Shown in pieces: positions 94-63,502 of a DNA stretch of 64,000 nucleotides. Position 1 is the stretch's first letter. Every line of letters begins with the position of its first letter. The translations under genes and the position numbers were made by a program. The notes below the pieces were generated by a model. The model did not search any database. It was not told the DNA's origin and saw only the letters and a list, made by a program, of their open reading frames with translations. This stretch comes from an uncultured Gemmatimonadaceae bacterium (GTDB taxonomy: Bacteria > Gemmatimonadota > Gemmatimonadetes > Gemmatimonadales > Gemmatimonadaceae). The DNA lies in contig CAWHHI010000008.1 of NCBI GenBank assembly GCA_963829055.1, positions 160,001 to 224,000 of the forward strand, read 5' to 3'.

Positions 94-1173
94 TCAGTCA
101 CCGAACGAGATACCCGTCGCCCGCGCGGTGAGCACGGTATCGTGGTTCGGATCGACCCGCTTTGCCTCGCCCAGAGCCTGGACGATGGGGATCGTCACGA
201 TGTGCGGCGACTGTAGCGCCACCATGGACCCCCACTGCGCGTCGGCCACGGCGCGGACGGCGGCGCCGCCGAAGCGCGCCGCCAGAAGACGGTCGTAGCC
301 GGTCGGTTGCCCGCCACGCTGCAAGTGACCCAGGACCAGTGATCGGGTCTCCTTGCCGGTCATCGTCTGAATCTCGCGCGCGATCGTGTCCGCGATCCCA
401 CCAACGCGCCGCGCCTCCCCGGGCAACGACTGGCCGATGGACGACTCGTGGCCACCGCGTGAAAATGCGCCCTCCGCGGCGACCACAATGGAGAAGTGCC
501 TGCCAGCGCGATCACGCTCCATGATCTTTTCGCAGACCTTCGTGATGTCGTACGGGATTTCGGGAATGAGAATCACATCGGCGGTACCGGCCAGTCCGCT
601 GTGCAGCGCAATGAATCCCGCGTGACGACCCATGACCTCCATCACGATGACCCGGTCGTGGCTCTCGGCCGTCGTGTGCAGTTTGTCGATCGCCTCGAGC
701 GCCGTGTTCACGGCGGTATCGAAGCCGAACGTCGTGACGGTACCACTCACGTCGTTGTCGATCGTCTTCGGCACGCCCACAATCTTCATCCCGCATTCGT
801 GCAATCGCTGCGCGATGGCGAGCGAGCCGTCGCCGCCGATGGTGATGACGGCGTCGATGCCGAGGGCGCGTGCGTTCTCGAGCAACTCGTTCGAGCGGTC
901 GGTCTCGACGAATGATCCGTCAGGCTGCCGAATCGGGTAATGGAACGGATTGCCGCGGTTCGTCGTGCGGAGGATCGTCCCGCCAAGGTGGGCAATCCCG
1001 CGCACGGATTCGCGCGTTAGGCTCACACACTGGTCCTCACCGAGCAGCCCCGCGAACCCTTTCCGGATTCCGATGACTTCCCATCCGCGACCGAGTGCCG
1101 ACAGGACCGCGGCGCGAATGACCGCGTTGAGGCCGGGCGCGTCACCGCCGCCGGTCGAGATCGCGATTCTCAT
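94..1173 (-). CDS. pfkA: 6-phosphofructokinase (group III type, probably ATP-dependent)
   Basis: GGDAPGLN, GGTILRT, GGDGS, PKTIDND, MEVMGR and LGHLQRGG motifs. G in GGDG plus K in PKTIDND is the group III pattern. Confidence 0.95.
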   Translation of the reverse strand: MRIAISTGGGDAPGLNAVIRAAVLSALGRGWEVIGIRKGFAGLLGEDQCVSLTRESVRGIAHLGGTILRTTNRGNPFHYPIRQPDGSFVETDRSNELLENARALGIDAVITIGGDGSLAIAQRLHECGMKIVGVPKTIDNDVSGTVTTFGFDTAVNTALEAIDKLHTTAESHDRVIVMEVMGRHAGFIALHSGLAGTADVILIPEIPYDITKVCEKIMERDRAGRHFSIVVAAEGAFSRGGHESSIGQSLPGEARRVGGIADTIAREIQTMTGKETRSLVLGHLQRGGQPTGYDRLLAARFGGAAVRAVADAQWGSMVALQSPHIVTIPIVQALGEAKRVDPNHDTVLTARATGISFGD

Positions 1174-1394
1174 GCTGTTCGCAACATGCGCACGACCTCT
1201 CCCGGCAGCGCGTGCCGCCCGAGCTTGGACTTTTCGAATACAGGGTGCCCGTCCCGACTCACCTCGAAGCGTCCGCCGCCCGACGGAATCAGTTCGACGT
1301 GCGCGTCCGGAAATGCCTCTCTGATCTCGGCCGCCAACCTGGCGGCCCGCGGTTCGTACGTTCAGACCGTGCAGTATTCGATCGTGATGGTCAT
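1170..1394 (-). CDS. Rdx/SelT/SelW/SelH-family selenoprotein, 74 aa, in-frame UGA read as Sec at codon 11
   Basis: Hand translation: MTITIEYCTV(UGA)TYEPRAARLAAEIREAFPDAHVELIPSGGGRFEVSRDGHPVFEKSKLGRHALPGEVVRMLRTA*. CxxU and G-x-FEV Rdx motifs; UGA at 1362-1364; stop overlaps the pfkA ATG (ATGA). Alternative start at 1421. Confidence 0.9.
1329..1347 (-). promoter_or_regulatory. Bacterial SECIS-like hairpin
   Basis: Minus strand GGCCGCC-AGGTT-GGCGGCC begins 14 nt after the in-frame UGA, with a G-containing apical loop. Confidence 0.8.
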
Positions 1395-1425
1395 CGGTCC
1401 AATGGTCTGTGTTATTGCCATGCGG

Positions 1426-4400
1426 TCAGTGCTGCCGGTCAGCGCCCGTGCTGTCCATGACGCGACCTGTCGGGCTCGGGCATCGGGTGCCGGAGCAGGT
1501 GTCGCCGAGGCTGTTCCAGTTGGCGATCGCGTTCAGTGCAAGCGCCCACGAACCCTGCGTCTGATATCGCCAGAACGGACGGATCGCGAACATCACGACG
1601 TGCCCGTTGCCGAGGGGTGCGTCCACGACAGCCGCCTTGCCTTGCATGTCCTGTGGGTTGTTGAGCATTCCGGAAATGCCTAGCGAGTCGGCGCGATCCA
1701 CAAAACGCAAGATCACGCGAGGGCGCACGCGAGCCTGTGCCGCGAGGAAGGTCGAGTCGACCGTGCCGCCATCGCCCTGTCCTTGCCCGCCAGTCTGCAC
1801 TTGCAGCAGCGGTGTCTGATTGAAGTAGACCGGGAAACTCTTGCTGACATCATACCCATAGAGAATCGGGCTCGAAGACGTCACCTGCTCCGCTCGGAAG
1901 ATGGCCCCGCGGGCACCGAGCGTACGCGACTGGACCTCGGTGACGCTCGGCGTTAGGCCGAGCTCCATCGGAAACCGACTCGTGGAACCTTCGACGAGCA
2001 ACAATCCGCCGCGCTCGACGAAGCGTCGCACCTGTGCCGCACCTTCCAGACCCATGCCGGGACGAATGTCGTCGGTCTCATCCCATTTGCCGAGATGCGG
2101 CGTCTGTGCCGATGCCTTCCACGGAACAGCTGGCCCGACCATCGGGCGGCCGTTCACGAGTGACATGCCGCCCTGACCCGAGTGCGGGAAGATGACCACG
2201 TCGTACCGATCGAGCACACCGGGCGCCCGGAGCTTCTGGTCGGCCATGTACGTGTAGGGAATTCCCATCTTGTCGAGCGAGAACCGCACCCAGCCTTCGT
2301 TCTGCGTCTCTTGCCAGGTGTGGATGTACGCGATTCGCGGCACGGAGATCGGATGCGTCCGAACACTTGGCGCCGCGGGCACCGCGTTCGCGACCAGTCC
2401 GAGGTCGCGTACCGCATCGCGAACCTTCGGCGCATCGGCGACGATGAACGTGCCTGCGGGGTAGCTCACCGAGTTGCTCGTGAACGCACTGTCGGCGACG
2501 AGGACGCGCCCACCTGCTTTCCACGGGAGCACGGCCGATCGCCAGTCACCGATGTGCCTCACGAGCAAGGTGCCGCCTGAGCCGTTCACTCGTCCCGCGA
2601 CAGCCGCGTCACTGGTGAGCGGACGCATCGGCTTGGAGAGAATCGTAGAATCGCTGATGGTGTACGTCTCGACGTGACGCAGCTCGTCGATCGTCCACCC
2701 GGTGTCGTCGTACGGCGACGGATCATCCGGCTTGTAGCGCTGGATCGCGAGCATCGTGCGGATCATCTGCGTGTACGGCTGGTCCATGCGTACGATCCAA
2801 TCGCCCGCATGAACAGTGACGGGGCCGGTCGCCCGAGGGCGCCCGGCAGCGCGTGTGCCCGCTTCGCCCCCCGCCAAGCGCGCCGATTGCGCTGAATCCC
2901 CGGGCTGCGTTGGCCGAGCGGCGTTTGCGGCCGATGCTGCGCCACCTGACGCGGCTGTGGTTCGGGTCGCGCTATCCGCTCGCGAGCTGTCCGCGGACGC
3001 TGTGCGCTGCGCACCGGCCGCCGTACTGCCCGACGTCGACGCGGGCAGCGGTCCGCGGTCTTCGATGACACGCGCTCCACGCTCGACAGTGAACTCGCTC
3101 GTCGCCTCGTGAATCTCTGCCGCCTGCAGACGAAACAGATTCACGAGATCCGCCGCCTCGGCCGCGTGACGCTGGTCGCGCGGAATCACGAACGCATACG
3201 GCGCGGACGTGGTCCCACGCGCGATCATGCGTTCCGCCTTGCGCGACGTTGTTCTCGAGAAACGTCGTGCGGTGGTCGCCCGACGTACTTGAGCGCGATG
3301 AGCGCGCCTGACTGCTGATAGTTGATGTTGCTGCGGATGCACCAGCGCACGCCGTTGATCGGCGGATTCGGACGATCCCAACTGCGACCCGTCTGCGCAG
3401 CGCCGAGGTCCACCGTCTGACATTCGGCGCCGCCCGACGTGTACGTCTCGTAGAACCGTCCGATCGAGTTGTGGAACTGCGCGATCGCCATGACGTAGTT
3501 AGGCGCCCATCCATCGTAGAAGCCGTGCGTCCACACGCCCGGCGAGCCCACGACGCGTCAGCTCGGTGATCTCCTGATACGCGAGCGTGTGCCATTCGGA
3601 GATCGCGATCGGATCGAACTCGTCGTTGTAGGGGCCAGTGCCGGTGCTGATGTACAGGAACGGCACCGACTCGTGCAGGTCATGCGTGATCGTCGGGTGC
3701 CACTGGAGGAAGCCCTTCAGGTAGTTCTGCGTGATCTTCTGCGACACGACCATGCCGTCGCGGTTGTTGTCGTGCGCCGTGTACTTGCCCCAGTAGACGA
3801 GGTTGCGGCCGCGGCACCTTCAGCAGCTTCGACTGGTTGTACGACGTCCACCATCGCGATCGCGGCCATCCACTTCCTGTACCGGCGTGATGAGCGTGAT
3901 GACGTTGGACGCGGATATCGCGCACGAACTCGCCCTCATCCACCGCGAGACGATAGGCGAGCTCCATCAGCATCTCGGGACTGCCGGTCTCCGGCGAGTG
4001 GATCGAGCCGAGCAGCCAGTAGATCGGCTTTGCCTCATGAATGAGTCGCGCACGCTCGGCAGCAGAGAGGCCTCGCGGGTCGGCGAGGCGCGCCGTCATC
4101 GCGCGGTACTCGTCGAGCCGGCGAATCGTTTCCTCGTCGGCCACGGCCAGCGACGATCTCTTCACGGTCCTCGTCGCTCATGCCGAACGACATGAGACGC
4201 GTGCGCGTCGGAGCGCGGCGGCCACCGCGCGGAAGTATCTGTTGACGTCCGCCACGTGCGAGAGCTTTCCCACGGTCCCGGGAACGTAGCCGAGGACCTT
4301 GAGCGGCGTCGGGACGGTGGCCGACGCTCGGCAGATAGTCGACGAGCTCGGTGGTGAACTTCCACTTGGGATCCGTCGGCGTGAGCTCCCGGATCTTCGC

Positions 4401-4913: not shown

Positions 4914-5334
4914 ATGCGACGTGGCACCACCGTGCCCGAATTGGTCGTGGTTTTGACAGTGGTTGGGGTGCTAGTCACTATCGCGCTCACACGTGCACGC
5001 GGGGTGCGCGACCGCGTGAGCGTGCGCGCGGCAGCCTCGGAAACCGTCGCGACGTTCGCGCTGGCGCGCCGCTGGTCGTTGTCGCGAGCCTCGCGCACCG
5101 CCATCACGTTCGACACCATGTCGGCAACCGCTCATCGTTCGGAGTTACGCCGACACCATCGCGCGCCGCTCGCTGAGATCGTCGCACGGTGTTGGCCTGT
5201 CGGCATCGCGCGACTCGATGGCCTATGCGCCTAACGGGCTGGGCTACGGAGCGTCGAACCTCACGCTGGTGTTGCGGCGAGGTGACGCTGCGGAGACAGT
5301 CTTCGTATCGCGGTTGGGCCGCGTGCGTCGGTAA
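4914..5334 (+). CDS. GspH/FimT-like pseudopilin (frameshifted near 5130-5180)
   Basis: Class III signal MRRG|TTVPELVVVLTVVGVL; C-terminus in another frame reads YAPNGLG...VFVSRLGRVRR* (TAA 5332-5334). Confidence 0.75.
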
Positions 5335-9428: not shown

Positions 9429-9971
9429 ATGCGGCGGCTGGGGAGCGCGACGCTGCTGGTCGCGATCGGCTGCGCGTCGTTAGGCACGCACGCGGTCCAG
9501 GCCCAGGGACGAGGGCCGCTGCAGTTGCCCCGCGTCGGCGAACGAGTGCGCGTGCGCGCGCCGAGCATTCGGGACGACCGCTATGTCGGACGCGTGGAAA
9601 GTTTGCCTCCCGACTCTATCATGCTCGACACGGCTGGCGTCCGACGCCGTTTGGGATTCGACATGGGTCCGGTACTCGTAGAAGAATTCCGCCGTGTCAC
9701 GATCCCGACGAACGCGATCGAATCGATCGACATCAGCACAGGACGCTCGCACAAACGCTCCACGATCAAGGGAGCCATCATCGGCGCGCTTGGAGGAGCC
9801 GTACTGTTCGGGGTCACCAACCTGCCCGAGGTGGATCCCGGCTTCTCCGACTTCATGAGTGGCGCGACCGTCGGCGTGGTGGTCGGCGGCGTGGTGGGCG
9901 GCGTCGTGGGCTACTTGTTAGGCGCCGAGAAGTGGCAGTCGTTCTATCGGGCCGGGGTACTCCCCCCCTGA
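9429..9971 (+). CDS. Exported hypothetical protein with C-terminal glycine-zipper hairpin
   Basis: Signal peptide; GAIIGALGG and GVVVGGVVGGVVG segments. Confidence 0.7.
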   Translation: MRRLGSATLLVAIGCASLGTHAVQAQGRGPLQLPRVGERVRVRAPSIRDDRYVGRVESLPPDSIMLDTAGVRRRLGFDMGPVLVEEFRRVTIPTNAIESIDISTGRSHKRSTIKGAIIGALGGAVLFGVTNLPEVDPGFSDFMSGATVGVVVGGVVGGVVGYLLGAEKWQSFYRAGVLPP

Positions 9972-12101: not shown

Positions 12102-12138
12102 CACCACACCGATGCCTAACGCACACAGGAGCCTTGCC

Positions 12139-41690: not shown

Positions 41691-41696
41691 CCGAGC

Positions 41697-50714: not shown

Positions 50715-51574
50715 CAGCGAAGTCCCAGCGCGAACGCTGAGCCGAAGGTTACATACCATGCTCGGTCGTCTCCGGTGAATCGACGACCGATCCCGCCGTC
50801 GATCGCCCAGCGAGGCGCGAGTTGATAGCGCAGGCCCGCTGCGGCGTTCCACGCCACGGATTCCGCACTGTCGATGGGCTGCTCGGCGAAGGACTCGATG
50901 CTCACGAGCAGCGAGTGCAGCGGAAACGTCTTGTCGACGGCGACGCCCGCGAGCCATCGCGACACATCCGAGCTCTGAACGGAGGATGGGACATCAGTAC
51001 CAGTCGTAGTACCGGTCGCAGTTTGGCTCGGCCCGACGGTGAGTTGGGCGTTCGCGTGGAACCGAGCCCATGGCGTCGTTCGCGTGACGATGCCCTTGAG
51101 CGTGCCGTACGTCGCATCGGCGGCAAGCGGTCCGGCGGGCAGTACCACGTCAGCCGCAACCGCGAGCGCCGGAATCGATGTCTCGGCGTTCAACGCATGG
51201 AGCAGAGAGATCTCGAGACCCGCAACGCCGCCACTCGACGTTCCGTTCGCATCCAGATACGCGATAGGCAGGCCGACCTGAAGCTGTGTACGGGGCAGCA
51301 ACCCGACAGCCGTTTCCGGGTGCAGCGACCACCGCCGCTGGCCGCCGCCCGCACTCTCGAAGCGTAGTGGTGCGACGTCGAACTCGATCGCGCGGTACTC
51401 TACCGGGGATGCGTCCTCTATCCGGAGCGGACGGCCGACGCTCGTGTTGTAGTAGTCAGTCTGCGCTTCCACGAGACGCGCCGACGGAAACAGCCCGAGG
51501 AGCGCTGCCACACCTAACGAGATGCACCGGCGAGGCAGTCCGCCCGACTCCGACCTTGCAGCTTGAAGTTTCAT
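50714..51574 (-). CDS. Putative outer-membrane beta-barrel
   Basis: Signal peptide, alternating amphipathic strands, C-terminal WYVTFGSAFALGLR. Confidence 0.7.
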   Translation of the reverse strand: MKLQAARSESGGLPRRCISLGVAALLGLFPSARLVEAQTDYYNTSVGRPLRIEDASPVEYRAIEFDVAPLRFESAGGGQRRWSLHPETAVGLLPRTQLQVGLPIAYLDANGTSSGGVAGLEISLLHALNAETSIPALAVAADVVLPAGPLAADATYGTLKGIVTRTTPWARFHANAQLTVGPSQTATGTTTGTDVPSSVQSSDVSRWLAGVAVDKTFPLHSLLVSIESFAEQPIDSAESVAWNAAAGLRYQLAPRWAIDGGIGRRFTGDDRAWYVTFGSAFALGLR

Positions 51575-51993: not shown

Positions 51994-54377
51994 CTCGTTG
52001 CTACGCGCGGGTCATAGCGTCGCAGTCGAAGGCTGTTCGACACGACACTCACAGAGCTGAACGCCATCGCGGCGCTCGCGAGTATGGGACTGAGCAGGAT
52101 TCCGACGACGGGGTAGAGTGCGCCCGCGGCAACAGGAATGCCCACGACGTTGTAGATGAATGCCCAGAAGAGGTTCTGCTTCATCGTGCGCATCGTTCGC
52201 CGCGAGAGCGCGATGGCGTGCGCGACGGCAGCGAGATCACCGCGCATGAGCGTTACGTCGCTGGCCTCGATCGCGATGTCGGTGCCTGACCCGACCGCAA
52301 TCCCGATATCAGCCTGCGCCAGCGCGGGAGCATCGTTTACGCCGTCACCTACCATGGCCACAACTTTCCCCGCCGACTGGAGCCGCTTTACCTCCGCGAC
52401 CTTGCCGTCGGGCAGCACGCCCGCGACGACGTCATCGATGCCAATCGCATGGGCGACAGCCGAGGCAACGCGCTCGTTGTCGCCGGTGAGCAGCACAACC
52501 TCCAGGCCCATGCGACGGAGTGAAGCAACCGCCTCACGCGAGCCCGCCTTGATCGGATCCGCGATCGCGATTGCGCCCGCGAGCGCGCCATCCACGGCGA
52601 CGAACACCACGGTCTTCGCTTCGCGCGCCAACCGGTCGGCATGGCCGGCGAGCGGCGACACGTCGATGCTCCACTCTTCCATGAGCCGCGCGTTACCGGC
52701 CGCGACGGCAGTTCCAGCCACGACGCCCGTCACGCCACGGCCGGTGTGTGACACGAATGACTCGGCGGTGCCTAACGTCGCGCCACGATCCCGCGCGGCG
52801 GCAACGATCGCGTCGGCAAGCGGATGCTCGGACTGTCGTTCGACGGTCGCGACGAGCGTCAGCACCTCGGCCTCGCTCCGACCATCCGGCGTGACGACCA
52901 CGTCCGTCACTGCAGGGCGCCCCTCCGTCACCGTTCCTGTCTTGTCGAGGACGACGGTGTCGAGCGAGCCGGCGCGCTGGAGCGCCTCTCCACCCTTGAT
53001 CAGAATACCGAGCTCCGCGCCCTTCCCCGTCGCGACCATGACCGCGGTCGGCACGGCGAGCCCCATCGCGCACGGACAGGCAATGATCAACACCGCAACC
53101 GCAGCCGCGAACGCGCGAACCGCGGGAGCCGTATCGGCGACGACGTACCAGATGGCGAACGTCGCGATCGCGAGCGAGATCACGACCGGCACAAATACCG
53201 CACTGATCCGGTCAGCGAGCCGCTGAATCGGCGCGCGGGAGCCCTGCGCCTCACGCATCAACCGAATGATCTGCGCCAATGTGCTGTCAGCGCCGAGCGT
53301 CGTCGCGCGATAGCGAAATGCGCCCGTGCGGTTGACCGTGCCGCCGATCACGCGGTCGCCGGTCTGCTTCTTCACCGGATCGGACTCGCCGGTCAGCATG
53401 GACTCGTCCACAGCGCTCGTTCCGCTCACGACCTCGCCGTCCACCGGCAGGCGCTCGCCGGGCCGCACCGTGACGACGTCACCGCGCCTAACGTCGGCGA
53501 CGGCAATGTCGACCTCGACGCCGTCACGCTCGACCCTGGCCGTCGTCGGCTGCAACGCAGCGAGGCCACGCAACGCCGTCGCCGTCTGGCGCTTGGCGCG
53601 CGCTTCGAGCGCATTGCCCACCAGAATCAGCGCAATGATGATGATCACGGCCTCGTAATACGTGTCCGGCGCAACGCCACGGTCGATGAAGAAGCGCGGC
53701 GCGACGGTCGCAAACACGGAGAACACGAACGCGGCGCCCGTGCCGACGGCGATGAGCGTATTCATGTCCGCCGAGTGGTGGCGGAAAGAGGCCCAGGCTC
53801 GCGTGTAGAAGTGACGACCGGCCCACACCATGATGCCGAGCGTCAACGCCAGAAGCGCGTAGGCGATGACCCGAGGATCTACCGCGTAGAGCCACGGCAA
53901 CGCGCCGCTGAGCACGGGCGTGAGCGACGACGACACCCACCTCATGAATGGGTCGGACGTGCCTCCCATCGCGCCGTGCACGCTGGGCGTCATGAGCGGC
54001 ATCGAGATGAGCATCGCGACGACACCCGCAACGAAGCTGACGATCGCCTTTCGCTTGAGCTCCGCATACTCCTCGGCGTAGGCGACATCCTGGGCTTCCT
54101 GCTCCTCGAGCGCGGTGCGGTCGATGGCGGGAAGGTCAGCGCCGTATCCGGTTGCGCGGATCGCGTCGATCAAGGCCTCGGGCGAGGCGGCAGCGGGATC
54201 GTACGTCACGGTCGCGGTATTCGTCATCAAGTTGACCGCCGCGTCGTGGACGCCAGGCTGGCGCGTGAGCGTGCGCTGCACGCGCGCCTGACACGCCGCG
54301 CACGTCATCCCCGAGACGGGGATGTCGATGCGCTCGTCGGACTCGTGTATCTCGTTAGGTGCAACGCGTGTTGCCAT
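51990..54377 (-). CDS. copA: Cu(I)-translocating P1B-1 ATPase
   Basis: [36 protein letters not shown]. Confidence 0.96.
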
Positions 54378-55219: not shown

Positions 55220-56626
55220 GTGAGTCCACATCGACTGTCCGGCGTCGACCGCGACAGGCTGCCGATCGGTCGTCTTCGCGGCCTCATCGCGGCTCTCATG
55301 ATCGTCGTGCCGGCCGCGGCAATGGCCCAGACCGTACCGGCGCTCGCACACGAGAAGTACACGCTGCCTAACGGGCTCGAGGTGATCCTCGCGGAGGATC
55401 ACTCGGTGCCGGTAGTAGCCGTGAACACGTGGTTCAAAGTCGGATCGGGCGACGAGCAGGTCGGCCGCACCGGGTTCGCCCACCTGTTCGAGCACATCAT
55501 GTTCATGGGCTCGGAGAACGTGCCGGTCGGCAAGTTCGATCAGTGGCTCGAAGCCGCGGGAGCGAACAACAACGGCTCGACCAATTCCGATCGGACGAAC
55601 TACTACGAGTGGCTGCCGTCCAATGCCCTGCCGCTCGCGCTCTGGCTCGACGCCGATCGCATGGGGCGGCTCCTGCCGACGATGGACCTCGCGAAGGTCG
55701 ACGTGCAGCGCGACGTGGTGAAGAACGAGCGCCGCCAGAGCTACGACAACGTGCCGTATGGTCGAGCCTACGAGACGATCCTCGCGGCGCTGTATCCGCC
55801 GACGCATCCGTACTCGCATTCGACCATCGGCTCGATGACCGACCTCAGCGCGGCATCGCTCGAGGACGTGAAGAATTTCTTCCGTATCTACTACGCGCCT
55901 AACAACGCCACGCTGTCCATTGTGGGCGACTTCCAGCGCGACTCCGTGAAGAAGCTCGTGCAACAATACTTCGGCGGAATTCCGCGTGGCCCTGCTCTCC
56001 CGCCACGCCCGCAGATCACGTCGCAGCCGGTCCCGCGCGACACGTTCCTCGTGCTCGAGGACAAGGTCCAGCTCCCGCGACTGTACTACGCGTGGCGGGC
56101 CGTGAAAGCGTTCCACGAGGACGACGCGCCGCTCGACGTCGTTGCGTACGTGCTCGCGGGTGACAAGAACTCGCGTCTCTACAAACGTCTCGTGTACGAC
56201 ATGCAGGTCGCGCAGGATGTGAGCGCGTTCAACAACAGTCAGCGCCTCGACGGCGGGTTCCAGATCGTCGTCACGCCCAAGCCGGGTCACACGCCCGCCG
56301 AGATGGCCAAGCTCGTGAACGAGGAGCTGCAAAAGCTCCTGGCCAACGGCGTCACGGAGCGAGAGCTCGCGCGCGCGCAGAACACGACCCGTGCGCAATT
56401 CCTCGATCGCATCGCGAGCACTCTCGGGAAGGCAGATCAGCTCAACTACTACAACTACTTCGTCGGCGACCCCGATTACGCCCGCCAGGATGCCGCGCGC
56501 TACGACAAGGTGACGCTCGCCGATGTGAAGCGAGTGGCTGCGTCGTACCTGGGCAAGCCGCGAGTCACACTCACCGTCGTCCCCGAGGGGAAGCGCGACC
56601 TCATGGTGACGGGAGTGATCCAGTGA
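55220..56626 (+). CDS. M16 zinc peptidase, active subunit
   Basis: LPNGL, GFAHLFEH (HxxEH), VVKNERR, YYAPNNA; start uncertain. Confidence 0.93.
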   Translation: MSPHRLSGVDRDRLPIGRLRGLIAALMIVVPAAAMAQTVPALAHEKYTLPNGLEVILAEDHSVPVVAVNTWFKVGSGDEQVGRTGFAHLFEHIMFMGSENVPVGKFDQWLEAAGANNNGSTNSDRTNYYEWLPSNALPLALWLDADRMGRLLPTMDLAKVDVQRDVVKNERRQSYDNVPYGRAYETILAALYPPTHPYSHSTIGSMTDLSAASLEDVKNFFRIYYAPNNATLSIVGDFQRDSVKKLVQQYFGGIPRGPALPPRPQITSQPVPRDTFLVLEDKVQLPRLYYAWRAVKAFHEDDAPLDVVAYVLAGDKNSRLYKRLVYDMQVAQDVSAFNNSQRLDGGFQIVVTPKPGHTPAEMAKLVNEELQKLLANGVTERELARAQNTTRAQFLDRIASTLGKADQLNYYNYFVGDPDYARQDAARYDKVTLADVKRVAASYLGKPRVTLTVVPEGKRDLMVTGVIQ

Positions 56627-58153
56627 TGCGCCACCAATTGCTCGGCTCACCGATCTCGCGAGCACTCGCGTGTGCGCTGTTGACGGTCGGCGCCGCCTGT
56701 TCGCAGCGTCGAACCACGCCTCCGACGACGACGCCCACTCCGGCACCCGCCACCGCGGCACCAGCAACCGCGGCACCAGCAACCGCGGCGGTCGACCTGA
56801 CGAAACCGCCGGTGCTCGGACCGCCAAAGGCACTGTCGCTACCCGCGGTCGTGACGCGGGAGCTGCCGAACGGCCTGCAACTCATGGTCGTCGAGCAGCA
56901 CGAGCTGCCGCTCGCGGATTTCGTGCTCGTCGTGAAGAGCGGAGCCGAGACGGATGAGGTCAGCAAGCTCGGGACGGCGACGCTCGCGACGTCTCTCCTC
57001 AAGGAAGGCACCACGTCTCGCAATTCGCTTCAGATCGCCGACCAGGAAGCGTTCCTGGGCGTCGACATCTCCACGGGGAGCGGGTGGGATGCGACGACGC
57101 TGCAACTCCACACGCCGACGGCGCAGATGGACAGCGCGCTCGCGCTGTTCGCGGACATCGCGCTTGCGTCCCGCGTTTCCGGCGAACGAGCTCGAACGCC
57201 TGCGCAAGAACCGCCTAACGAGCCTGCTGCAGGTGAAGGACCGCGGGCCGGAGATGGCCAATCGCGCCTACGCGGCAATCGTCTTCGGCTCGGCGGCGTA
57301 CGGACGGCCGTCGACGGGCAATGAGGCGACCACGAACGCGATCCAGCAGAGCGACATCCGCCGCTTCTACGAGACGTACTTCCGGCCCAACAACGCGACG
57401 TTGGTCGTGGTGGGCGACGTGAAGCCCGACGACATCGAGCGCCGCGTACGCGCGCTGTTCGGCGGCTGGGAGCGTCGTGCCGTGCCAGCCGCCACGTATG
57501 GTCAACCGGCGCCGGCCAAGGCGACGACGATCTACGTCGTGGACAAGCCCGGCGCGGCGCAGTCCTCATTCCGCATCGGCAGCGTAGGCGTCGCGCGCAA
57601 CACTGCGGATTACTTCCCGCTCACAGTGATGAACACCGTGTTAGGCGGGTCGTTCACCAGCCGCCTCAACCAGAACCTTCGCGAGACCAAGGCCTACACG
57701 TACGGCGCGAGCTCGGGCTTCGGCATGCGTCGCGCGCCAGGGCCGTTCATCGCGAGCGCCGAGGTCGTTGCGGCAAAGACGGACTCGGCGCTGCTCGAGT
57801 TCATGAAGGAGTTGCGCGCGATTCGCGATACGGTGCCTCGCGATGAGCTCGAGAAAACGAAGCGGTACCTGCAGCTTCAGCTACCGGGCAGTTTCGAGAC
57901 CACCGGCGGGATCGCAGGTCAGCTCGCGCAACTCGTGCCGTACGACGTGCCGCCGAGTTTCTACAACGACTACACGCAAGGGATTGCGACAGTGACGCAG
58001 GCGGACGTGCAGCGGGTCGCGCGTCAGTACATCGATCCGGACAAGCTCTCGATCGTCATCGTCGGCGATCGGAAGTCGATCGAGCCGGGACTCAAGTCGA
58101 CGAAGGTGGGTGATGTCGTCATCGTAGACATCACCGGACGGCCAGCGATGTAA
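56623..58153 (+). CDS. M16 peptidase partner subunit (lipoprotein, no HxxEH), frameshift near 57165
   Basis: Lipobox AAC, LPNGL, YFRPNNA, SRLNQNLRETKAYTYG. Confidence 0.88.
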
Positions 58154-59243: not shown

Positions 59244-62087
59244 GTGGTCGCCACCGGCGCGGTGCTCGCTCTCATAGTAGAGCACGCGCGGCGTCGCGGC
59301 GCTACGCGCGGGCTGGAGCTTCGCGACGGGACGATCGACAGACTCAACGGCGACGTCGTCGCGCTGCGATCGATGCTGCAGGATTATACCCACCAGCGCG
59401 AGGCCGCGGAGGAAGTGTTACGACACGGCGAGGAGCGCTACCGGGTCCTCGTCGACAATCTGACGACGATCGTGTTCCAGATCGACCGCGACCTGCGCTG
59501 GACCTTTCTGAATCCGGCGTGGGAGACCGTCACGGGCCGATCCCCAGCGGAAAGCATCGGCCAGGTGGCAACGGCACTCATGGTCGACGAGGACGCGTCG
59601 GAGTGCGCTACGGAGCTCCGCGCCCTGATCGACGGCCAACGTTCGCTCGCCGAGCACGTGGTTCGCGTGCGGTGCGTCGCTGGCCAGATGCACTGGCTCG
59701 AGCTCCGCGCGTTGCCGATGGTCGATACCCACGGCGTGATCGTTGGTGTCAGCGGCACGCTGAGCGATGTCACCGCTCGGGTATCCGTCGAGCTCGAGCT
59801 ACGCCGTCAACAGACGCTCTACCGCCTCATCGCAGAGAACTCGAGCGATATGATCGCGCTCATTTCTCTGCATGGCGGCCAGTTCACGTATGTCAGCCCG
59901 TCGACGCAACACGTCCTGGGATACACCGCGGAAGAAGTCGTCGGCATGGAGTGGTGGACGCTGCTCGATCCGGCGGACGGCGAACGCATCAAGCGTACGG
60001 TGACGACCATCCGAGACCAGAAGCCGCTCACGGAAACGGCTCGCGTGCGGCGGAAGGATGGCACCTGGGTGTGGCTGGAAGCGCGTGTCGACGCGGTACT
60101 CGAGGAGGACGGGACGGTCGTCGGCTACCGAATAACAGCCCGGGATTACACCGAGCAACGCGACGCCGGACTCGCCCTCACCGAAAGTGAGGCCAAGTAT
60201 CGCCTGTTGGCCGAGTCGATCGATGACATCGTGTGCCTGCAGGATCTGGACGGCACGGCGCTGTACTACTCGGCGTCCACCGAGAAAACGCTCGGCTTCA
60301 CGCCCGCTGAGCTGGTCGGCAAGGATGCGTTCGCGCTCACGCACCCCGACGACCTGGCCAAGCTCGCCGGCGATACGTACCTCGCCGTGCTGCGGGGGGA
60401 AACACCGTTGGTCGAGTGGCGTTGTCTCCGGAAAGACGGCTCGTACATCTGGGTCGAGACCCACACCGCACTGCTTCGCAACGAGTCAGGCGTGCCGGAC
60501 CGCCTGCTCAGCGTCACTCGTGACATTGAGGCGCGGAAGCACGCGCAGGAAGCGCTGCATCAGTCCGAGGAACGAATGCGCGCGCTCATTGCGCGCGCCG
60601 CCTACGGGATCTTCCGTTCGACGCGAGAGGGTCGCTTCCTCGACGTGAACCCGGCGCTCGTCTCGTTACTCGGCTACGACTCGGCTGAGCAGTTGATGTC
60701 GATCGACATCCCGCGTGAGCTTTACGTCGACCCAGAAGAGCGCGATCGCTGGATCACCGCAATCGATAGCGGCGCGCATCCGGAGTGGTTCGACCTAACG
60801 TGGCGACGAAAGGACGGTGCTCTGATCGCCGTTCGTCTGTCCGCGCGTGCGGCACGCGACCCGTACGGCGACGTGTTGTGGTACGAAGGCATCGCGGAGA
60901 ACGTCACGGAGCGGCTCCGCCGCGAGGTGGTCGTCCGCCGCGCGGAGCGGATGGCGAGCCTCGGGCATACGTTGGCCGGCGTGGCGCACGAGTTGAACAA
61001 CCCGCTGGCGGCGATCTCCGGCTTCGCGCAGATCCTGATGAAGACGAATCTTCCGAAGGAGGATCGCAGCGCCATCGAGACGGTCCATCGCGAAGCGAAG
61101 CGCGCGGCGAAGATCGTCAAGGACCTGCTGACGTTCGCGCGGCGCCAGGAATCGTCGGAGCGGCACATCGTCGACCTCAACGGCATCGTGCGCTACATCG
61201 CCGACACGCAGCGCTACGCGATGGAAACGCACGGTGTAGTCTGCCAGCTCGCGCTGAGCGACGCGCCGGCATTTGTCTCCGCGGATCCGGCGCAGCTCGA
61301 GCAGGTCATGCTCAACCTCCTCGTGAATGCTCGTCAGGCGCTGGAGACGATAACTGCACCGACTGTGTCCGGCGGTGTCGCGTCAGGCACGCTCCGGACT
61401 CCGATGGTCGTCATTCGAACGTCGGTTCGTGCGAACACGGTGACGCTCGAAATCAGCGACAATGGCCCGGGTATCGCACCGGCGGAGCTACCGCGCATCT
61501 GGGATCCGTTCTGGACGACGAAAGAAGAAGGCGAAGGCACAGGCCTCGGGCTATCTGTCGTACACGGCATCGTCACCGAACACGGCGGCAGCATCGACGT
61601 CGAGACGCATGTCGGTGCGGGAACGACGTTCTGTGTGTCATTGCCCTCGTTCAACCGCGACAGCAGCGACGGCCGCCTGGCGGTGGAGACGGTTCCGCTT
61701 GGTCCACCATCGCAGCATGCGGAGCGGCCACTGGACATTCTCGTCATCGACGATGAGGAAGTGATCGTTGGCCTGTTGGTGCGCTATTTCTCCTCACGAG
61801 GACACGCGGTGGTTCCCGCGCACGAAGGGCGTCAGGCGCTCCGCGTCGCGCAGCACTCGAGCTTCGACGTGGTGATCTGCGATCTACGAATGCCGGGCAT
61901 GGATGGCGCAGAGGTGATCCGGCGACTCAAGGAAATACCGACGTGCTCGAGTGCGCGGTTCGTGCTATCGACGGGTGATACCGCGACGCCCGTGGTGCGC
62001 GAACGCATCGAGGGGTTGAATCTGGCCGCCGTCGTGGAAAAGCCGTACGAGGTCGAAGCGTTGCGACGCATCGTCGAAGATGGGTGA
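59244..62087 (+). CDS. Hybrid histidine kinase: four PAS domains + HisKA + HATPase + receiver
   Basis: VAHELNNPL, NLLVNA, DNGPG, GTGLGL, VIDDE, DLRMP. Confidence 0.93.
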   Translation: MVATGAVLALIVEHARRRGATRGLELRDGTIDRLNGDVVALRSMLQDYTHQREAAEEVLRHGEERYRVLVDNLTTIVFQIDRDLRWTFLNPAWETVTGRSPAESIGQVATALMVDEDASECATELRALIDGQRSLAEHVVRVRCVAGQMHWLELRALPMVDTHGVIVGVSGTLSDVTARVSVELELRRQQTLYRLIAENSSDMIALISLHGGQFTYVSPSTQHVLGYTAEEVVGMEWWTLLDPADGERIKRTVTTIRDQKPLTETARVRRKDGTWVWLEARVDAVLEEDGTVVGYRITARDYTEQRDAGLALTESEAKYRLLAESIDDIVCLQDLDGTALYYSASTEKTLGFTPAELVGKDAFALTHPDDLAKLAGDTYLAVLRGETPLVEWRCLRKDGSYIWVETHTALLRNESGVPDRLLSVTRDIEARKHAQEALHQSEERMRALIARAAYGIFRSTREGRFLDVNPALVSLLGYDSAEQLMSIDIPRELYVDPEERDRWITAIDSGAHPEWFDLTWRRKDGALIAVRLSARAARDPYGDVLWYEGIAENVTERLRREVVVRRAERMASLGHTLAGVAHELNNPLAAISGFAQILMKTNLPKEDRSAIETVHREAKRAAKIVKDLLTFARRQESSERHIVDLNGIVRYIADTQRYAMETHGVVCQLALSDAPAFVSADPAQLEQVMLNLLVNARQALETITAPTVSGGVASGTLRTPMVVIRTSVRANTVTLEISDNGPGIAPAELPRIWDPFWTTKEEGEGTGLGLSVVHGIVTEHGGSIDVETHVGAGTTFCVSLPSFNRDSSDGRLAVETVPLGPPSQHAERPLDILVIDDEEVIVGLLVRYFSSRGHAVVPAHEGRQALRVAQHSSFDVVICDLRMPGMDGAEVIRRLKEIPTCSSARFVLSTGDTATPVVRERIEGLNLAAVVEKPYEVEALRRIVEDG

Positions 62088-62848
62088 GACATCGTCCGCG
62101 GCCGCCGAGTCGGTCGACCGCGCGCGGTCGTTGCTACGGCGCGCGAGGCGAGTGGTAGCCCTCACGGGTGCGGGCGTGAGCGCCGAGTCCGGAGTGCCCA
62201 CATTTCGAGGCCAGGGTGGTCTGTGGCGTCAGTATCGTGCGGAGGACCTCGCTACTCCGGAGGCCTTCGCGCACGACCCGCGACTCGTGTGGGAGTGGTA
62301 CGGATGGCGCCGCAGCGTCGTATCCGGCTGCGCACCTAACGCCGCACATGCTGCGCTCGCCAGCGCGGCGGCCGCACACGACGACTTCCGGATCGTCACG
62401 CAGAACGTGGACGGCCTGCACGTCCAGGCGGCGCAGCGACGTTCGGGCCATGCCACTCGAGCTGCACGGCTCGCTGTACCGATCCCGCTGTACGCGCTGC
62501 GATCACCGCTGGGATGATCGCGGCACCATTGATGCAACTTCACGCGAGACACTCCCACGGTGCGCCGCCTGCGGCATGCTCGCTCGGCCGGACATTGTGT
62601 GGTTCGGCGAGGCGCTCGATCCGTCGGTTCTCGGCGAGGCGATGCGCCTCGCCGAGAATGCCGAAGTGTGCCTCGTGATCGGCACGAGCGCGCTCGTCCA
62701 TCCAGCCGCCGGTCTCGCCGATCTCACGCGTCGTCATGGTGGCAGCGTGATCGAGATCAACGTCGCCGATACGCCGCTCACACCAACAGCCACTGTGTCA
62801 CTCCGCGGGCCCGCTGCCGCGATCGTGCCCGATCTCCTCGCCTCCTAG
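62080..62848 (+). CDS. cobB: NAD-dependent deacylase (sirtuin), frameshift near 62440
   Basis: GAGVSAESGVPTFRG, TQNVDGLH, ELHG, CxxC..CxxC, RPDIVWFGE, IGTS. Confidence 0.93.
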
Positions 62849-62857
62849 ACGCAGCCC

Positions 62858-63502
62858 ATGGGCATCCTGGATCTCGCCGCGATCCGTAAGGACTACGCGC
62901 TCTCGTCACTGACGGAGCGCGATGTCGATGCGGACCCGATCCGACAGTTCGAGCGGTGGTTCGCCGATGCGCTATCCGCGCAGGTGCTCGAGCCTAACGC
63001 CATGACGCTCGCCACCGCCACGCGCGACGGATCTCCCTCGGCGCGCATTGTCCTGCTCAAGGGCGTGGACGCCCATGGCTTCACGTTCTTCACGGACTAC
63101 CGAAGTCGAAAGGGCGCCGAGCTGACGGAGAACCCGCTCGCGGCGCTCACCTTTCTCTGGAAGGAGATCGAGCGTCAGGTGCGCATCGCGGGTGCCGTGT
63201 CACGCGTGAGCAGCGCCGAGTCCGAGGCGTATTTCCGTTCACGCCCGCCGGGCAGCCGACTGGGCGCGTGGGCATCGCATCAGAGCGCCGTCATCGCCAG
63301 CCGTGAAGCGCTCGAGGAGCGTCTTCGCGACGTGACGCGGCAGTTCCCGACCGATGACATTCCGCTACCGCCGCACTGGGGCGGGTTCCGTGTCGTTCCA
63401 GACGAGATCGAGTTCTGGCAGGGACGTCCGAGCCGGCTGCACGATCGGCTGCGGTATCATCGCGAGCCAAGCGGGTGGCGGATAGAGAGGCTGTCGCCGT
63501 GA
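62858..63502 (+). CDS. pdxH: Pyridoxamine 5'-phosphate oxidase
   Basis: [30 protein letters not shown]. Confidence 0.96.

Follow-up and report, generated by a model that had tools for sequence, protein, structure and literature searches.

CGTTAGG, a hyper-abundant, strand-symmetric DNA word of Gemmatimonadales that resembles DNA-uptake sequences

In the window (the whole 64-kb stretch of DNA analysed here), we identified 46 copies of a non-palindromic heptamer, of which 20 read CGTTAGG and 26 read CCTAACG on the forward strand. The full word is the 8-mer CGTTAGGC, of which CGTTAGG/CCTAACG is the core: position 8 is C in 78% of the CGTTAGG copies in G000, with a stringency that varies by genus (67% in G014 and 99% in G304), and the flanks past the 8th base carry at most 0.16 bit. 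Dinucleotide-preserving shuffles of the window yielded a mean of 2.94 copies (sd 1.77, maximum 7), and 46 copies were reached in 0 of 100 shuffles. A first-pass annotation, made from the sequence alone, had listed these positions; every coordinate proved correct, as did its count of 8 additional six-base cores (54 GTTAGG vs. 46 CGTTAGG), and its zero-order expectation of ~7 copies agrees with the recomputed value (891 genome-wide, or ~7 per window). The GC content of the window, given there as ~67%, is 65.5%, and that of the genome is ~66.5%. The copies of CGTTAGG are listed below with the gene calls of this analysis; a minus sign after the coordinates denotes CCTAACG on the forward strand, and 'kept' is the number of aligned genus relatives with the exact word.

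1015..1021 (+), 8th base C, in gene 94-1173(-), xxC-CTA-ACG; kept 0/2
1951..1957 (+), 8th base C, in gene 1426-3228(-), xxC-CTA-ACG; kept 0/1
5230..5236 (-), 8th base C, between gene calls; kept 4/4
9478..9484 (+), 8th base C, in gene 9429-9971(+), xCG-TTA-GGx; kept 0/4
10234..10240 (+), 8th base A, in gene 9944-10993(-), CCT-AAC-Gxx; kept 3/5
10364..10370 (+), 8th base C, in gene 9944-10993(-), xxC-CTA-ACG; kept 0/5
12115..12121 (-), 8th base C, between gene calls; kept 2/2
12651..12657 (-), 8th base C, in gene 12139-12726(+), xxC-CTA-ACG; kept 2/2
13355..13361 (-), 8th base T, in gene 12787-14841(-), xCG-TTA-GGx; kept 5/5
13923..13929 (+), 8th base C, in gene 12787-14841(-), CCT-AAC-Gxx; kept 3/5
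14210..14216 (-), 8th base T, in gene 12787-14841(-), xCG-TTA-GGx; kept 4/5
19322..19328 (-), 8th base T, in gene 17351-19873(+), Lon protease, CCT-AAC-Gxx; kept 4/5
20345..20351 (+), 8th base G, in gene 20023-21270(+), xCG-TTA-GGx; kept 0/3
21198..21204 (-), 8th base C, in gene 20023-21270(+), xxC-CTA-ACG; kept 0/3
22170..22176 (+), 8th base C, in gene 21300-22724(-), xxC-CTA-ACG; kept 2/4
24497..24503 (+), 8th base C, between gene calls, where the assembly has indels; kept 4/4
25122..25128 (+), 8th base C, in gene 24677-25309(+), xCG-TTA-GGx; no relative aligned
25614..25620 (+), 8th base T, in gene 25546-26226(-), CCT-AAC-Gxx; no relative aligned
26180..26186 (-), 8th base T, in gene 25546-26226(-), xCG-TTA-GGx; no relative aligned
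26865..26871 (+), 8th base T, between gene calls; no relative aligned
28254..28260 (+), 8th base G, in gene 27646-28566(+), xxC-GTT-AGG; no relative aligned
28642..28648 (+), 8th base C, between gene calls; no relative aligned
33656..33662 (+), 8th base C, between gene calls; kept 1/2
34881..34887 (-), 8th base C, between gene calls; no relative aligned
36295..36301 (-), 8th base C, in gene 36161-38149(+), xxC-CTA-ACG; kept 0/4
38144..38150 (+), 8th base T, supplies stop TAG, 3' end of gene 36161-38149(+); kept 3/4
38929..38935 (-), 8th base T, in gene 38286-39893(-), xCG-TTA-GGx; kept 6/6
41696..41702 (-), 8th base C, supplies stop TAG, 3' end of gene 41697-42059(-); kept 0/4
42586..42592 (+), 8th base C, between gene calls; kept 2/3
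43736..43742 (-), 8th base C, in gene 43733-44257(+), CCT-AAC-Gxx; no relative aligned
44871..44877 (-), 8th base C, between gene calls; kept 3/3
46164..46170 (-), 8th base C, in gene 45967-47103(+), xxC-CTA-ACG; kept 4/4
47099..47105 (-), 8th base C, supplies stop TAA, 3' end of gene 45967-47103(+); kept 3/4
47632..47638 (+), 8th base C, in gene 47313-48668(+), xCG-TTA-GGx; kept 4/4
48349..48355 (+), 8th base C, in gene 47313-48668(+), xCG-TTA-GGx; kept 2/3
48749..48755 (-), 8th base C, in gene 48665-49255(+), CCT-AAC-Gxx; kept 2/3
49251..49257 (-), 8th base T, supplies stop TAA, 3' end of gene 48665-49255(+); kept 0/2
51513..51519 (-), 8th base T, between gene calls; kept 0/3
52771..52777 (-), 8th base C, in gene 51990-54377(-), xCG-TTA-GGx; kept 3/3
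53487..53493 (-), 8th base C, in gene 51990-54377(-), xxC-GTT-AGG; kept 0/3
54353..54359 (+), 8th base T, in gene 51990-54377(-), CCT-AAC-Gxx; no relative aligned
55367..55373 (-), 8th base C, in gene 55220-56626(+), CCT-AAC-Gxx; kept 0/5
57214..57220 (-), 8th base C, in gene 57164-58153(+), xxC-CTA-ACG; kept 5/5
60794..60800 (-), 8th base T, in gene 59244-62087(+), xxC-CTA-ACG; kept 0/4
62335..62341 (-), 8th base T, between gene calls; no relative aligned
62993..62999 (-), 8th base C, in gene 62858-63502(+), CCT-AAC-Gxx; no relative aligned

Among the four stop codons that had been ascribed to the word in the first-pass annotation, those at 38147-49, 41697-99 and 49253-55 end gene calls, and the one at 28644 lies between gene calls; a fifth word-supplied stop, absent from that list, lies at 47101-03.

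In the 7.78-Mb genome of this soil bacterium, CGTTAGG occurs 6,391 times (3,237 + 3,154 by strand), that is, 0.82 copies per kb or ~1 per 1,200 letters, with a density of 0.64-1.09 per kb on each of the 20 contigs, and all top 7-mers and 8-mers in the ranking by observed/expected ratio belong to the CGTTAGGC word. The predicted genome-wide enrichment over Markov and codon-preserving nulls holds in both cases. A first-order model yields 353 expected copies across the genome. For the codon null, we performed 10 protein-preserving shuffles of synonymous codons in 4,003 confident coding sequences, which contain 1,766 sense copies (57-92 in the shuffles) and 1,609 antisense copies (158-182 in the shuffles), for a total of 3,375 vs. 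~235, or ~14 times the codon-preserving null. In the same sequences, 1,345 of the 2,249 TTA codons fall within CGTTAGG copies. The genome writes CGTTAGGC against its own codon habits.

The lack of strand bias seen in the window extends to the genome strand, the gene strand and replication. Relative to genes, 2,066 copies are sense and 1,921 antisense; the two orientations are represented by 182 and 181 copies 3' of genes; and the test for replication polarity revealed none (window z-score variance 1.15), with strand counts of 201/159 and 230/234 on either side of the skew switch on contig C16. The density of CGTTAGG is equal between coding and non-coding DNA. Inside genes, the word occupies the four open reading frames, consistent with the differing frames reported initially, and the two frames in which it creates a stop hold 5 and 11 copies. 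It supplies the stop codon of 286 of 3,985 genes, covering 165 of the 510 TAA stops, and the last 25 nt ahead of stop codons contain 338 copies vs. 82 expected. Among intergenic regions, convergent spacers hold 1.3 copies per kb and divergent spacers 0.72. The placement of the word tracks the tolerance of the site.

Comparison of the distances between copies shows that short gaps are depleted, with observed/expected ratios of 0.29 below 100 bp and 0.55 at 100-200 bp, whereas forty control 7-mers of similar abundance gave 0.95-2.68 and 0.78-1.19, respectively. This hole does not depend on the orientation of the copies and closes near 300 bp, and the exclusion is also found in G304 (0.50 and 0.59) and G014 (0.33 and 0.79), that is, in three genera in all. 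Among pairs at most 60 bp apart, 28 are inverted and 53 direct, both classes being depleted. No long-range periodicity of CGTTAGG copies was detected.

Maintenance at orthologous sites, a check proposed in the first-pass annotation, is borne out. In alignments of the window with genus relatives (~77% DNA identity), the exact CGTTAGG was kept in 71 of 128 site-by-relative pairs (55%), compared to 38,310 of 197,171 (19%) for any 7-mer in the same alignments; 13 of the 35 sites covered by relatives carry the word in the source species alone, and relatives that lack the word at a site often have a one-step neighbour, e.g., CGTCAGG or CGTGAGG. Three foreign-looking contig-end stretches of 32-50 kb, which show no synteny with the genus, contain no CGTTAGG at all. 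In the window, we saw no tract of recent recombination between species. With enrichment defined as a word count at least 2 times that of the control word, 14 of 41 relatives and 16 of 401 genomes of the phylum are enriched; these represent 16 genera, all in the order Gemmatimonadales, and none of the 135 genomes from elsewhere in the phylum is enriched. The density of the 8-mer among the enriched genomes ranges from about 0.05 to 1.25 copies per kb, and the word-rich genomes, at about one copy per kb, span 62-73% GC. In the cultured Gemmatirosa kalamazoonensis KBS708, 69 copies were found in 100 kb of its two megaplasmids.

Taken together, these findings support the conclusion that the word is a DNA-level signal beyond what protein sequence explains, as the first-pass annotation had claimed, because it is independent of frame, exceeds the codon-preserving null and is equally dense in coding and non-coding DNA, and because it is non-polar, kept at orthologous sites and restricted to some lineages. 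Of the recognition systems named there, biased uptake appears to fit best, a nucleoid-protein site remains a rival, and a methylation-linked repair drive is disfavoured.

Like HIP1 (GCGATCGC) of cyanobacteria, the Gemmatimonadales word is an 8-mer that is very dense in coding DNA and conserved at orthologous positions; unlike HIP1, it is non-palindromic, no co-distributed methyltransferase was found for it, and the methylated motifs reported for a cultured word-rich strain do not include it. With Chi and KOPS/SRS it shares an asymmetric form of ~8 nt and over-representation on the resident genome, but it lacks replication or gene-strand polarity and is far more enriched (~14-18 fold). The resemblance to the Neisseriaceae DUS, whose receptor is ComP, lies in a hyper-abundant 'self' word, in genus-level stringency differences ('dialects') and in enrichment directly 3' of genes; in contrast to DUS, inverted-repeat pairs and terminator hairpins are not in excess, copies close to each other are depleted, and no ComP_DUS homologue was found in the word-rich genomes searched. 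Like the Pasteurellaceae USS, the word is short, non-palindromic and strand-symmetric, occurs at ~1 per kb, lies mostly within genes in a few tolerated frames, is common to related genera and is absent from foreign DNA. It is also evenly spaced, as is reported of USS (PMC1939737), and close pairs seem to bring no benefit, just as paired USS less than 100 bp apart are reported not to raise uptake (PMC7811141). Unlike USS, it comprises 8 bp with no extended AT-rich flanks seen, and it belongs to another phylum, where its uptake role is one that we infer; the USS receptor itself, the minor pilin ComN/PpdA, is reported as a prediction only (PMC12616744).

CGTTAGG(C) may quite possibly be a 'self' word of a subset of Gemmatimonadales that resembles DNA uptake sequences and is spread by recombination after biased uptake. 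It would have accumulated, and still be maintained, through a process that reads double-stranded DNA and is blind to strand, gene and frame, and to which a second copy within about 300 bp would bring no gain. The likeliest such process is probably the one that gave rise to the USS of Pasteurellaceae and the DUS of Neisseriaceae: fragments carrying the word would be favoured by a receptor in the type IV pilus / ComEA / ComEC transformation machinery, and homologous recombination of these fragments would drive it into tolerant places (stop codons, intergenic DNA 3' of genes, and codon positions where the change is synonymous or conservative) until about one copy per kb is reached. What we infer here is the biased uptake, the spread by recombination and the existence of a receptor. 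Abundance, symmetry, tolerant placement, short-range exclusion, maintenance and lineage limits argue for this reading, along with the word-free foreign-looking DNA, the presence of uptake machinery and the weakness of the methylation alternative; the shortness of an 8-bp word without an extended flank, the lack of inverted pairs and the lack of a visible recombination tract argue against it. The genome encodes ComEC, DprA, a ComEA-like HHH_3 protein, secretins and a pilin-PilMNO-PilQ locus, in which a PilP-sized gene without a Pfam match lies between PilO and PilQ. ComEC is present in 40 of 41 relatives, word-poor ones included, and the DprA, ComEA-like HHH_3 and secretin families in 5 of 5 panel genomes, 2 of them word-poor; being equally present in word-poor relatives, the uptake genes therefore do not discriminate. 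A ComP-type receptor was found in none of the 10 word-rich genomes searched; PF16732 had no match in the 7 genus members, nor in G014 and G040. A literature search yielded no experimental report of competence or of biased uptake from this phylum.

An intracellular reader would leave many of these marks in the genome as well, and it is conceivable, if rather unlikely, that a sequence-specific protein inside the cell binds the word, which selection would then keep at fairly regular intervals for nucleoid structuring, for repair or to label 'self' DNA in defence or recombination. The ~300 bp exclusion zone in all orientations and three genera, the orthologous conservation (55% vs. 19%) and Karlin's reading of even USS spacing (PMC1939737) are consistent with such a protein, but the 8-mer density varies widely between enriched genomes (about 0.05 to 1.25 per kb), which resembles a history of gain and decay more than a constant functional requirement, copies favour the places of lowest constraint (stop codons, 3' spacers and synonymous positions), 13 of the 35 covered sites are occupied in the source species alone, and neither long-range periodicity nor a candidate protein was found. 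An origin of the enrichment in errors of assembly, base-calling or polishing of the long-read genome is practically untenable. The assembly does contain split genes and single-base indels relative to short-read contigs (e.g., at 24207, 24261, 24550 and 24566), but this reading is refuted because independent assemblies carry the word: it is enriched in other genera, in a finished record of a named isolate and in six fragmented genus relatives (260-1,170 contigs, with 2,501-5,112 copies of the 8-mer), so that the loss of the word outside long reads, which the first-pass annotation had considered, did not occur. In addition, comparison of positions 20001-40000 with short-read contigs from 4 runs of 4 studies shows that the 15 copies there are free of all 40 listed substitutions and 12 listed indels (a further 654 + 34 differences are unlisted).

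A methyltransferase-linked repair drive, HIP1-like or very-short-patch-like, in which mismatch-specific repair converts near-misses into a methylated word is highly improbable, and for m6A and m4C it is largely refuted. Type IIG/III enzymes typically recognise non-palindromic 7-8-mers, and a ~1,050-aa Eco57I/MmeI-like type IIG protein is encoded in all word-rich genomes tested; however, this protein is single-copy, vertically inherited and encoded in 39 of 41 genomes, word-rich and word-poor alike, and none of its regions follows the distribution of the word. Of the 433 invariant columns in its alignment, only 5, at positions 64-670 of the 1,074-aa protein, set the strongly word-rich genomes apart, and the moderately enriched ones share 0 of these. 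The proposed correlation with methyltransferases did not materialize for Vsr or for the C5 and N4/N6 families: Vsr (PF03852) was undetected in 7 of 7 genus members, G014 and G040 and found only in 4 word-poor genomes; C5 methylase (PF00145) was undetected in 7 of 7 genus members, G014, G040, G304, G240 and G297 and found in the word-rich G323, G165 and G020; N6_N4 methylase (PF01555) was undetected in 7 of 7 genus members and G040; and the genus has a Dam-like gene that was undetected in G014 and G040. Nor would a site-by-site process predict the 300-bp exclusion zone, and the SMRT methylome of the word-rich G. kalamazoonensis KBS708, for which only RGATCY, ATGCAC and CCAGN7TCA were reported, lacks CGTTAGGC (PMC3974934). 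A methylation-independent mutational or biased gene-conversion process in the cell (e.g., a sequence-specific nickase or a mismatch-repair bias), with the word as its product or protected end-state, is also improbable, if less so. It would account for the one-step neighbours often found at word-lacking sites of relatives, and some directional force is needed since the word opposes the GC-rich composition; but no candidate enzyme was found, and a purely mutational sink would not persist at 55% of orthologous sites, would leave no 300-bp hole around copies and would not halt near one copy per kb at 62-73% GC.

A pattern search of the window recovered all 46 sites of CGTTAGG or its reverse complement CCTAACG listed by the first-pass annotation, 20 on the plus strand and 26 on the minus strand. 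Dinucleotide-preserving shuffles of the window, which spans C8:160001-224000 and has 65.5% GC, contained 2.94 copies on average and 7 at most, and none of 100 shuffles reached 46. Across the whole source genome (G000; 7,784,024 bases, 20 contigs) we identified 3,237 + 3,154 = 6,391 copies (0.82 per kb), compared to 891 expected under a zero-order model and 353 under a first-order model, with densities of 0.64-1.09 per kb over all 20 individual contigs. When words were ranked by observed/expected under an order-3 Markov model, an expectation that the word itself inflates, its sub- or superstrings accounted for all 12 leading 8-mers and for 10 of the 12 leading 7-mers. CG precedes 6,391 of the 7,392 TTAGG in the genome, the base after CGTTAGG is C in 78% of the copies, and positions further outside carry at most 0.16 bit of information. 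Because the eighth base is mostly C and the flanks are nearly uninformative, we take the unit to be the 8-mer CGTTAGGC, which is present in 5,004 copies. These flanks, and the 3,987 copies that lie within gene calls, led us to reject a dispersed repeat of the REP or MITE type. An Rfam search of the window matched no family.

Genes were called with a crude codon-likelihood finder of our own (6,745 calls covering 73% of the genome), and this set is an under-call, partly because the assembly carries frameshifts. Besides the copies within gene calls, 481 extend across gene ends and 1,923 fall between calls; coding DNA holds 0.70 copies per kb and all other DNA 0.91. Inside gene calls, the word is read as xCG-TTA-GGx in 1,555 cases, CCT-AAC-G in 1,147, xxC-CTA-ACG in 763 and xxC-GTT-AGG in 506, and the two stop-containing frames hold 5 and 11 copies. 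The copies in the window are placed as follows.

Word copies in the window
31 copies: in genes
11 copies: between gene calls
4 copies, starting at 38144, 41696, 47099 and 49251: supplying stop codons

That protein sequence does not explain the word, as had been proposed from the window, holds under a codon-preserving null in which synonymous codons were shuffled within each of 4,003 confident genes, leaving proteins and per-gene codon counts unchanged (10 shuffles): we observed 1,766 sense copies vs. 57-92 in the shuffles, and 1,609 antisense copies vs. 158-182, an excess of about 14-fold. In the confident genes, 1,345 of the 2,249 TTA codons are located in the word. Protein coding thus offers no explanation for its abundance.

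The absence of strand bias noted at first pass likewise extends to the genome (3,237/3,154). Over 145 windows of 50 kb, the strand z-score has a variance of 1.15, where 1 corresponds to no local polarity, and the strands hold 201/159 and 230/234 copies on the two flanks of a switch of GC skew and gene orientation near 550 kb of contig C16. Within gene calls there are 2,066 sense vs. 1,921 antisense copies, and the first 50 nt downstream of stop codons hold 182 vs. 181 copies in the two orientations. Since the genome-wide, downstream and skew-switch counts show no polarity, the imbalance between the window halves is due to chance, and an apparent change of orientation near 34 kb of the window, being within chance genome-wide, was rejected. 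Replication polarity of the Chi or KOPS type was rejected on the z-score variance and the skew-switch counts, and a gene-strand or RNA-level signal on the sense/antisense balance and the equal orientations past stop codons.

Copies accumulate at gene ends. The word supplies the stop codon in 286 of 3,985 confident genes (TAA, 165 of 510; TAG, 121 of 1,058), and the last 25 nt ending at the stop hold 338 copies vs. 82 expected, followed by 185, 162, 115 and 103 in the next four bins. Intergenic density is 1.3 per kb in convergent spacers, 1.1 in tandem and 0.72 in divergent ones. One copy, at window position 12115, lies in the 37-bp spacer separating two adjoining gene calls (11487-12726), each corresponding to half of DUF4331; the downstream call begins with an apparent signal peptide, as judged by eye. 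Repeated DNA, examined for depletion of the word in repeats and mobile DNA, totals just 36.5 kb. Repeated blocks at C16:606731-611679, C4:822304-825294 and C12:102885-104445 hold no copy in about 9 kb; block sizes of 2,990 and 1,556 bp equal 23S and 16S rRNA gene lengths, and these are putative rRNA genes.

Neighboring copies avoid each other. We observed 408 gaps below 200 bp vs. 977 expected, with a surplus at 400-1,600 bp; observed/expected was 0.29 below 100 bp and 0.55 at 100-200 bp, compared to 0.95-2.68 and 0.78-1.19, respectively, for 40 control 7-mers of similar abundance. The pair correlation shows a hole of about 300 bp that is alike for direct, convergent and divergent pairs (0.24-0.33 below 100 bp, 0.43-0.57 at 100-200 bp and 0.71-0.83 at 200-300 bp), and past about 300 bp it is flat in G000, with no periodicity. 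The same short-range hole was found in G304 (0.50 and 0.59; 400 kb) and G014 (0.33 and 0.79; 99 kb), genomes of two comparison organisms. Inverted-repeat pairs or terminators were rejected as the basis of the word, given that pairs within 60 bp comprise 28 inverted vs. 53 direct, both far under expectation.

Conservation at orthologous sites was assessed with six relatives from the same genus, whose alignments took in 12-68% of the window with an identity of 77-80%; 35 of the 46 sites were covered by at least one of them. The exact word was retained in 71 of 128 site-by-relative pairs (55%), compared to 38,310 of 197,171 (19.4%) when every 7-mer of these alignments was scored; the pairs are non-independent, the relatives being kin. 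One or more relatives share the word at 22 of the covered sites and no relative does at the other 13, and the replacing sequences were often one-step neighbors such as CGTCAGG and CGTGAGG. A search of the window for recent inter-species recombination tracts of at least 93% identity over 300 bp found none.

We mapped the 8-mer across Gemmatimonadota, scoring a genome as enriched when its count was at least twice that of a control, the word read backwards, which is conservative because it lacks TA; the tallies, and no other claim here, draw on the unpublished genomes G013, G085, G203 and G124, as four word-poor rows. Among 41 relatives, 14 were enriched: each of the 7 genus genomes (2,501-5,112 copies), G014 (6,360 copies in 5.1 Mb), G010, G019 and G020, as well as G036, G038 and G040 from a second family. 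A phylum-wide draw yielded 16 enriched genomes of 401, namely 13 of 95 in family f1 (genera g1, g38, g41, g44, g45, g46, g48, g49 and g51) and 3 of 166 in family f2 (all g77), with none among the 5 genomes of f3 or the 135 of families f4-f12. Taking both genome sets, enrichment spans 16 genera of a single order, Gemmatimonadales. Three genomes of g46 carry 3,479-4,141 copies and a fourth, G293, a deep branch within that genus, carries 66. In 80 loci, one from each of 80 named family members, 71 were without a copy, and the six loci from the genus held 1-6 each. The word is the same throughout: in samples of both G014 (62.6% GC) and G040 (71.7% GC) it again ranks first among over-represented 7- or 8-mers. 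The stringency for C at the eighth base varies from 67% in G014 and 78% in G000 to 99% in G304.

An assembly or base-calling artefact is almost certainly not the source of the enrichment: fragmented assemblies of relatives and a finished isolate record carry the word too. The species was found in soil, rhizosphere and sediment metagenomes from at least 15 studies, and contigs from 4 runs span window positions 20001-40000, which hold 15 copies. None of the 40 listed substitutions and none of the 12 listed indels falls inside these copies, and a further 654 + 34 differences lie beyond those listed; the comparison used assembled contigs, and thinly covered parts of the window were left uninterpreted. 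Single bases at 24207, 24261, 24550 and 24566 are absent from the contigs of up to four independent runs. The G000 assembly seems to carry long-read indel errors, in keeping with its completeness of 85.9%. A glutamine-dependent NAD synthetase at 23596-25309 is broken into a CN_hydrolase and an NAD_synthase call.

Three stretches of 32-50 kb at contig ends are free of the word, and we sampled one locus in each.

Word-free contig-end stretches and the loci sampled in them
C6:5440-55038: word-free stretch; locus L181, G000:C6:10001-30000
C6:591808-623330: word-free stretch; locus L183, G000:C6:595001-615000
C11:1-44055: word-free stretch; locus L182, G000:C11:10001-30000

They encode housekeeping genes (chorismate synthase, FolD, IlvD and GreA), and their matches to the genus are scattered, at most 1.2 kb long and 66-73% identical; the window, by contrast, is syntenic with the genus at 72-86%. 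A second chorismate synthase gene of G000 is located in the pilus locus. With housekeeping genes and no genus synteny, the stretches were rejected as prophages; chimeric joins or contamination are their probable origin. The word is a mark of resident DNA, and in practice word-free stretches can reveal chimeric or foreign sequence when genomes of these organisms are assembled.

A drive linked to a DNA methyltransferase, as for the HIP1 word of cyanobacteria, appears highly unlikely. Vsr (PF03852) was found in none of the 7 genus genomes, nor in G014 or G040, and its occurrences, in 4 genomes, are all word-poor. C5 methylase is missing from the 7 genus genomes, G014, G040, G304, G240 and G297, and present in word-rich G323, G165 and G020. 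A drive by Vsr and C5 methylase (VSP) was rejected, both genes being missing from 7 of 7 genus genomes, G014 and G040. N6_N4 methylase (PF01555) was found in none of the genus genomes and not in G040, a Dam-like gene of the genus has no match in G014 or G040, and matches to PF02384 in the genus are a conserved type IIG-like protein and one type I gene, the latter in G001 only. No DNA methyltransferase was co-distributed with the word among the families and genomes searched. The point in favor of such a drive is the type IIG-like protein (about 1,050 aa, Eco57I/MmeI-like), the sole methylase-like gene common to all word-rich genomes tested.

Genes for the type IIG-like protein
G001, locus L070:178-3357: type IIG-like protein gene
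G000:C8:73551-76755: type IIG-like protein gene, in five frame pieces

It is single-copy in 39 of 41 Gemmatimonadales genomes, with identity that follows taxonomy; vertical inheritance is unusual for that family. No region of 100-150 residues, C-terminal part included, tracks the word. Of 433 columns that are invariant in the strongly enriched genomes, only 5 (positions 64-670 of 1,074 aa) are seldom matched by word-poor genomes, and none of the 5 is shared with the moderately enriched genomes. We rejected this protein as the determinant on its vertical single-copy inheritance, the lack of a tracking region and the scarcity of specific columns. The strongest point against a methylation drive comes from the cultured Gemmatirosa kalamazoonensis KBS708, in which every copy of the word in two 50-kb megaplasmid stretches (36 and 33) is the full 8-mer: its published SMRT methylome lists only three m6A motifs, RGATCY, ATGCAC and CCAGN7TCA, with m5C outside the method (PMC3974934), and the word is not among them.

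The machinery for transformation is encoded. We found ComEC in 40 of 41 relatives, and each of the 5 panel genomes, 2 of them word-poor, encodes DprA, a ComEA-like HHH_3 protein and secretins. These genes are necessary, yet not discriminating, because word-poor relatives hold the same ones. The pilus locus (pilins, PilM, PilN, PilO, a PilP-sized gene, PilQ, a lipoprotein, aroC, aroK, smg and topA, in this order) is syntenic in G000, G014 and word-poor G008; the PilP-sized gene between PilO and PilQ has no Pfam match. ComP_DUS (PF16732) was found in none of the 7 genus genomes and not in G014 or G040, with weak generic pilin matches only elsewhere, and a search of 10 word-rich genomes yielded no ComP homologue; a regular-expression screen gave 5 pilin-like ORFs. 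PilN, PilQ and the 809-aa lipoprotein of G000 are much closer to those of G014 than to those of G008. The predicted lipoprotein next to pilQ (P0001; 809-857 aa) has Ig-like domains and a weak beta-propeller match.

Genes for the pilQ-adjacent lipoprotein
L278:8823-11249: lipoprotein gene of G014
L272:7340-9737: lipoprotein gene of G000
L276:7750-10320: lipoprotein gene of G008

Family members encode three sequence classes of this lipoprotein, about 50%, 36% and 30% identical to that of G000. In a survey that scored 3 candidates per genome, the variant with 45-53% identity occurred in g9, g15, g16, g38, g44, g48 and g51, all at least weakly enriched, and the strongly enriched g46, g49, g45 and g41 carry a lipoprotein about 30% identical to that of G000. 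We rejected it as the reader, since its distribution reflects clades and not the word. About a dozen families or proteins were examined, and none proved to be the reader.

By analogy, the signatures of the word are those of uptake sequences, above all the USS of Pasteurellaceae: a short, non-palindromic word at about one copy per kb, strand symmetry, mostly genic placement in tolerated frames, even spacing, lineage specificity and absence from foreign DNA. As with both the USS and the DUS of Neisseriaceae, the word is common to related genera with dialects and enriched at gene 3' ends. An uptake-sequence-like drive is our leading explanation, and we give it slightly less than an even chance. 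A second USS within 100 bp brings no gain in uptake according to passages of two studies (PMC1939737, PMC7811141), which provides a rationale for the exclusion zone. Unlike in the neisserial DUS-ComP system, however, the word occurs without a ComP homologue (7 genus genomes, G014 and G040) and without frequent inverted-repeat terminator pairs; unlike HIP1-like or VSP systems, it has no co-distributed methyltransferase or Vsr; and unlike Chi and KOPS, it shows no orientation skew along the direction of replication.

Alternatively, the word may be the binding site of an intracellular protein, which we consider rather unlikely, or the product of some other biased repair or conversion process, which is decidedly improbable. 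It is also quite unlikely that the word is a genome-wide 'self' mark read inside the cell rather than an uptake tag. A sequence-specific reader, neither a methyltransferase nor a ComP-type pilin, would then bias recombinational repair or gene conversion toward tagged DNA, the word would be a strand-symmetric functional counterpart of Chi, and the 300-bp exclusion zone would be a conversion tract or a protein footprint. If true, this would amount to a novel type of chromosomal self-recognition system that only Gemmatimonadales possess.

Competence is argued to be common among abundant soil bacteria in a soil-metagenome study (PMC7305173). In a recent preprint, DNA uptake enhancing sequences (DUES) are equated with the DUS of Neisseriaceae and the USS of Pasteurellaceae, so that on this account biased uptake with a hyper-abundant tag is known from two proteobacterial families only (10.1101/2025.10.24.684340). 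A third, unrelated case in Gemmatimonadota, an abundant and little-cultivated soil phylum, would, if an uptake-sequence-like drive is real, show that such tags evolved repeatedly; the word would mark gene flow and 'self' in soil metagenomes, and comparison with USS and DUS would give an independent system for the drive-versus-selection debate. The case is directly testable because cultured KBS708 carries the word. The literature collection searched for Gemmatimonadota competence, for methylomes and motifs and for hyper-abundant words yielded no description of this word; papers containing its letters, among the matches listed, were by title uses in primers or oligos. New here are the exclusion zone in three genera, the copies parked at stop codons, the phylum-wide enrichment map, the exclusion of methyltransferase and Vsr links, and the tie to a cultured strain with a published methylome (KBS708).

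Family f2 also includes word-poor genomes in which CGTTAGGC is repeated on a single strand at intervals of 500-750 bp, in arrays of up to 24 kb.

One-strand arrays of the 8-mer in family f2
G027:C95:188-23656: one-strand array
G025:C3:996-7711: one-strand array
G379:C2:164-3005: one-strand array

Each resembles a giant gene whose tandem repeats, of about 200 aa, contain the word by chance.
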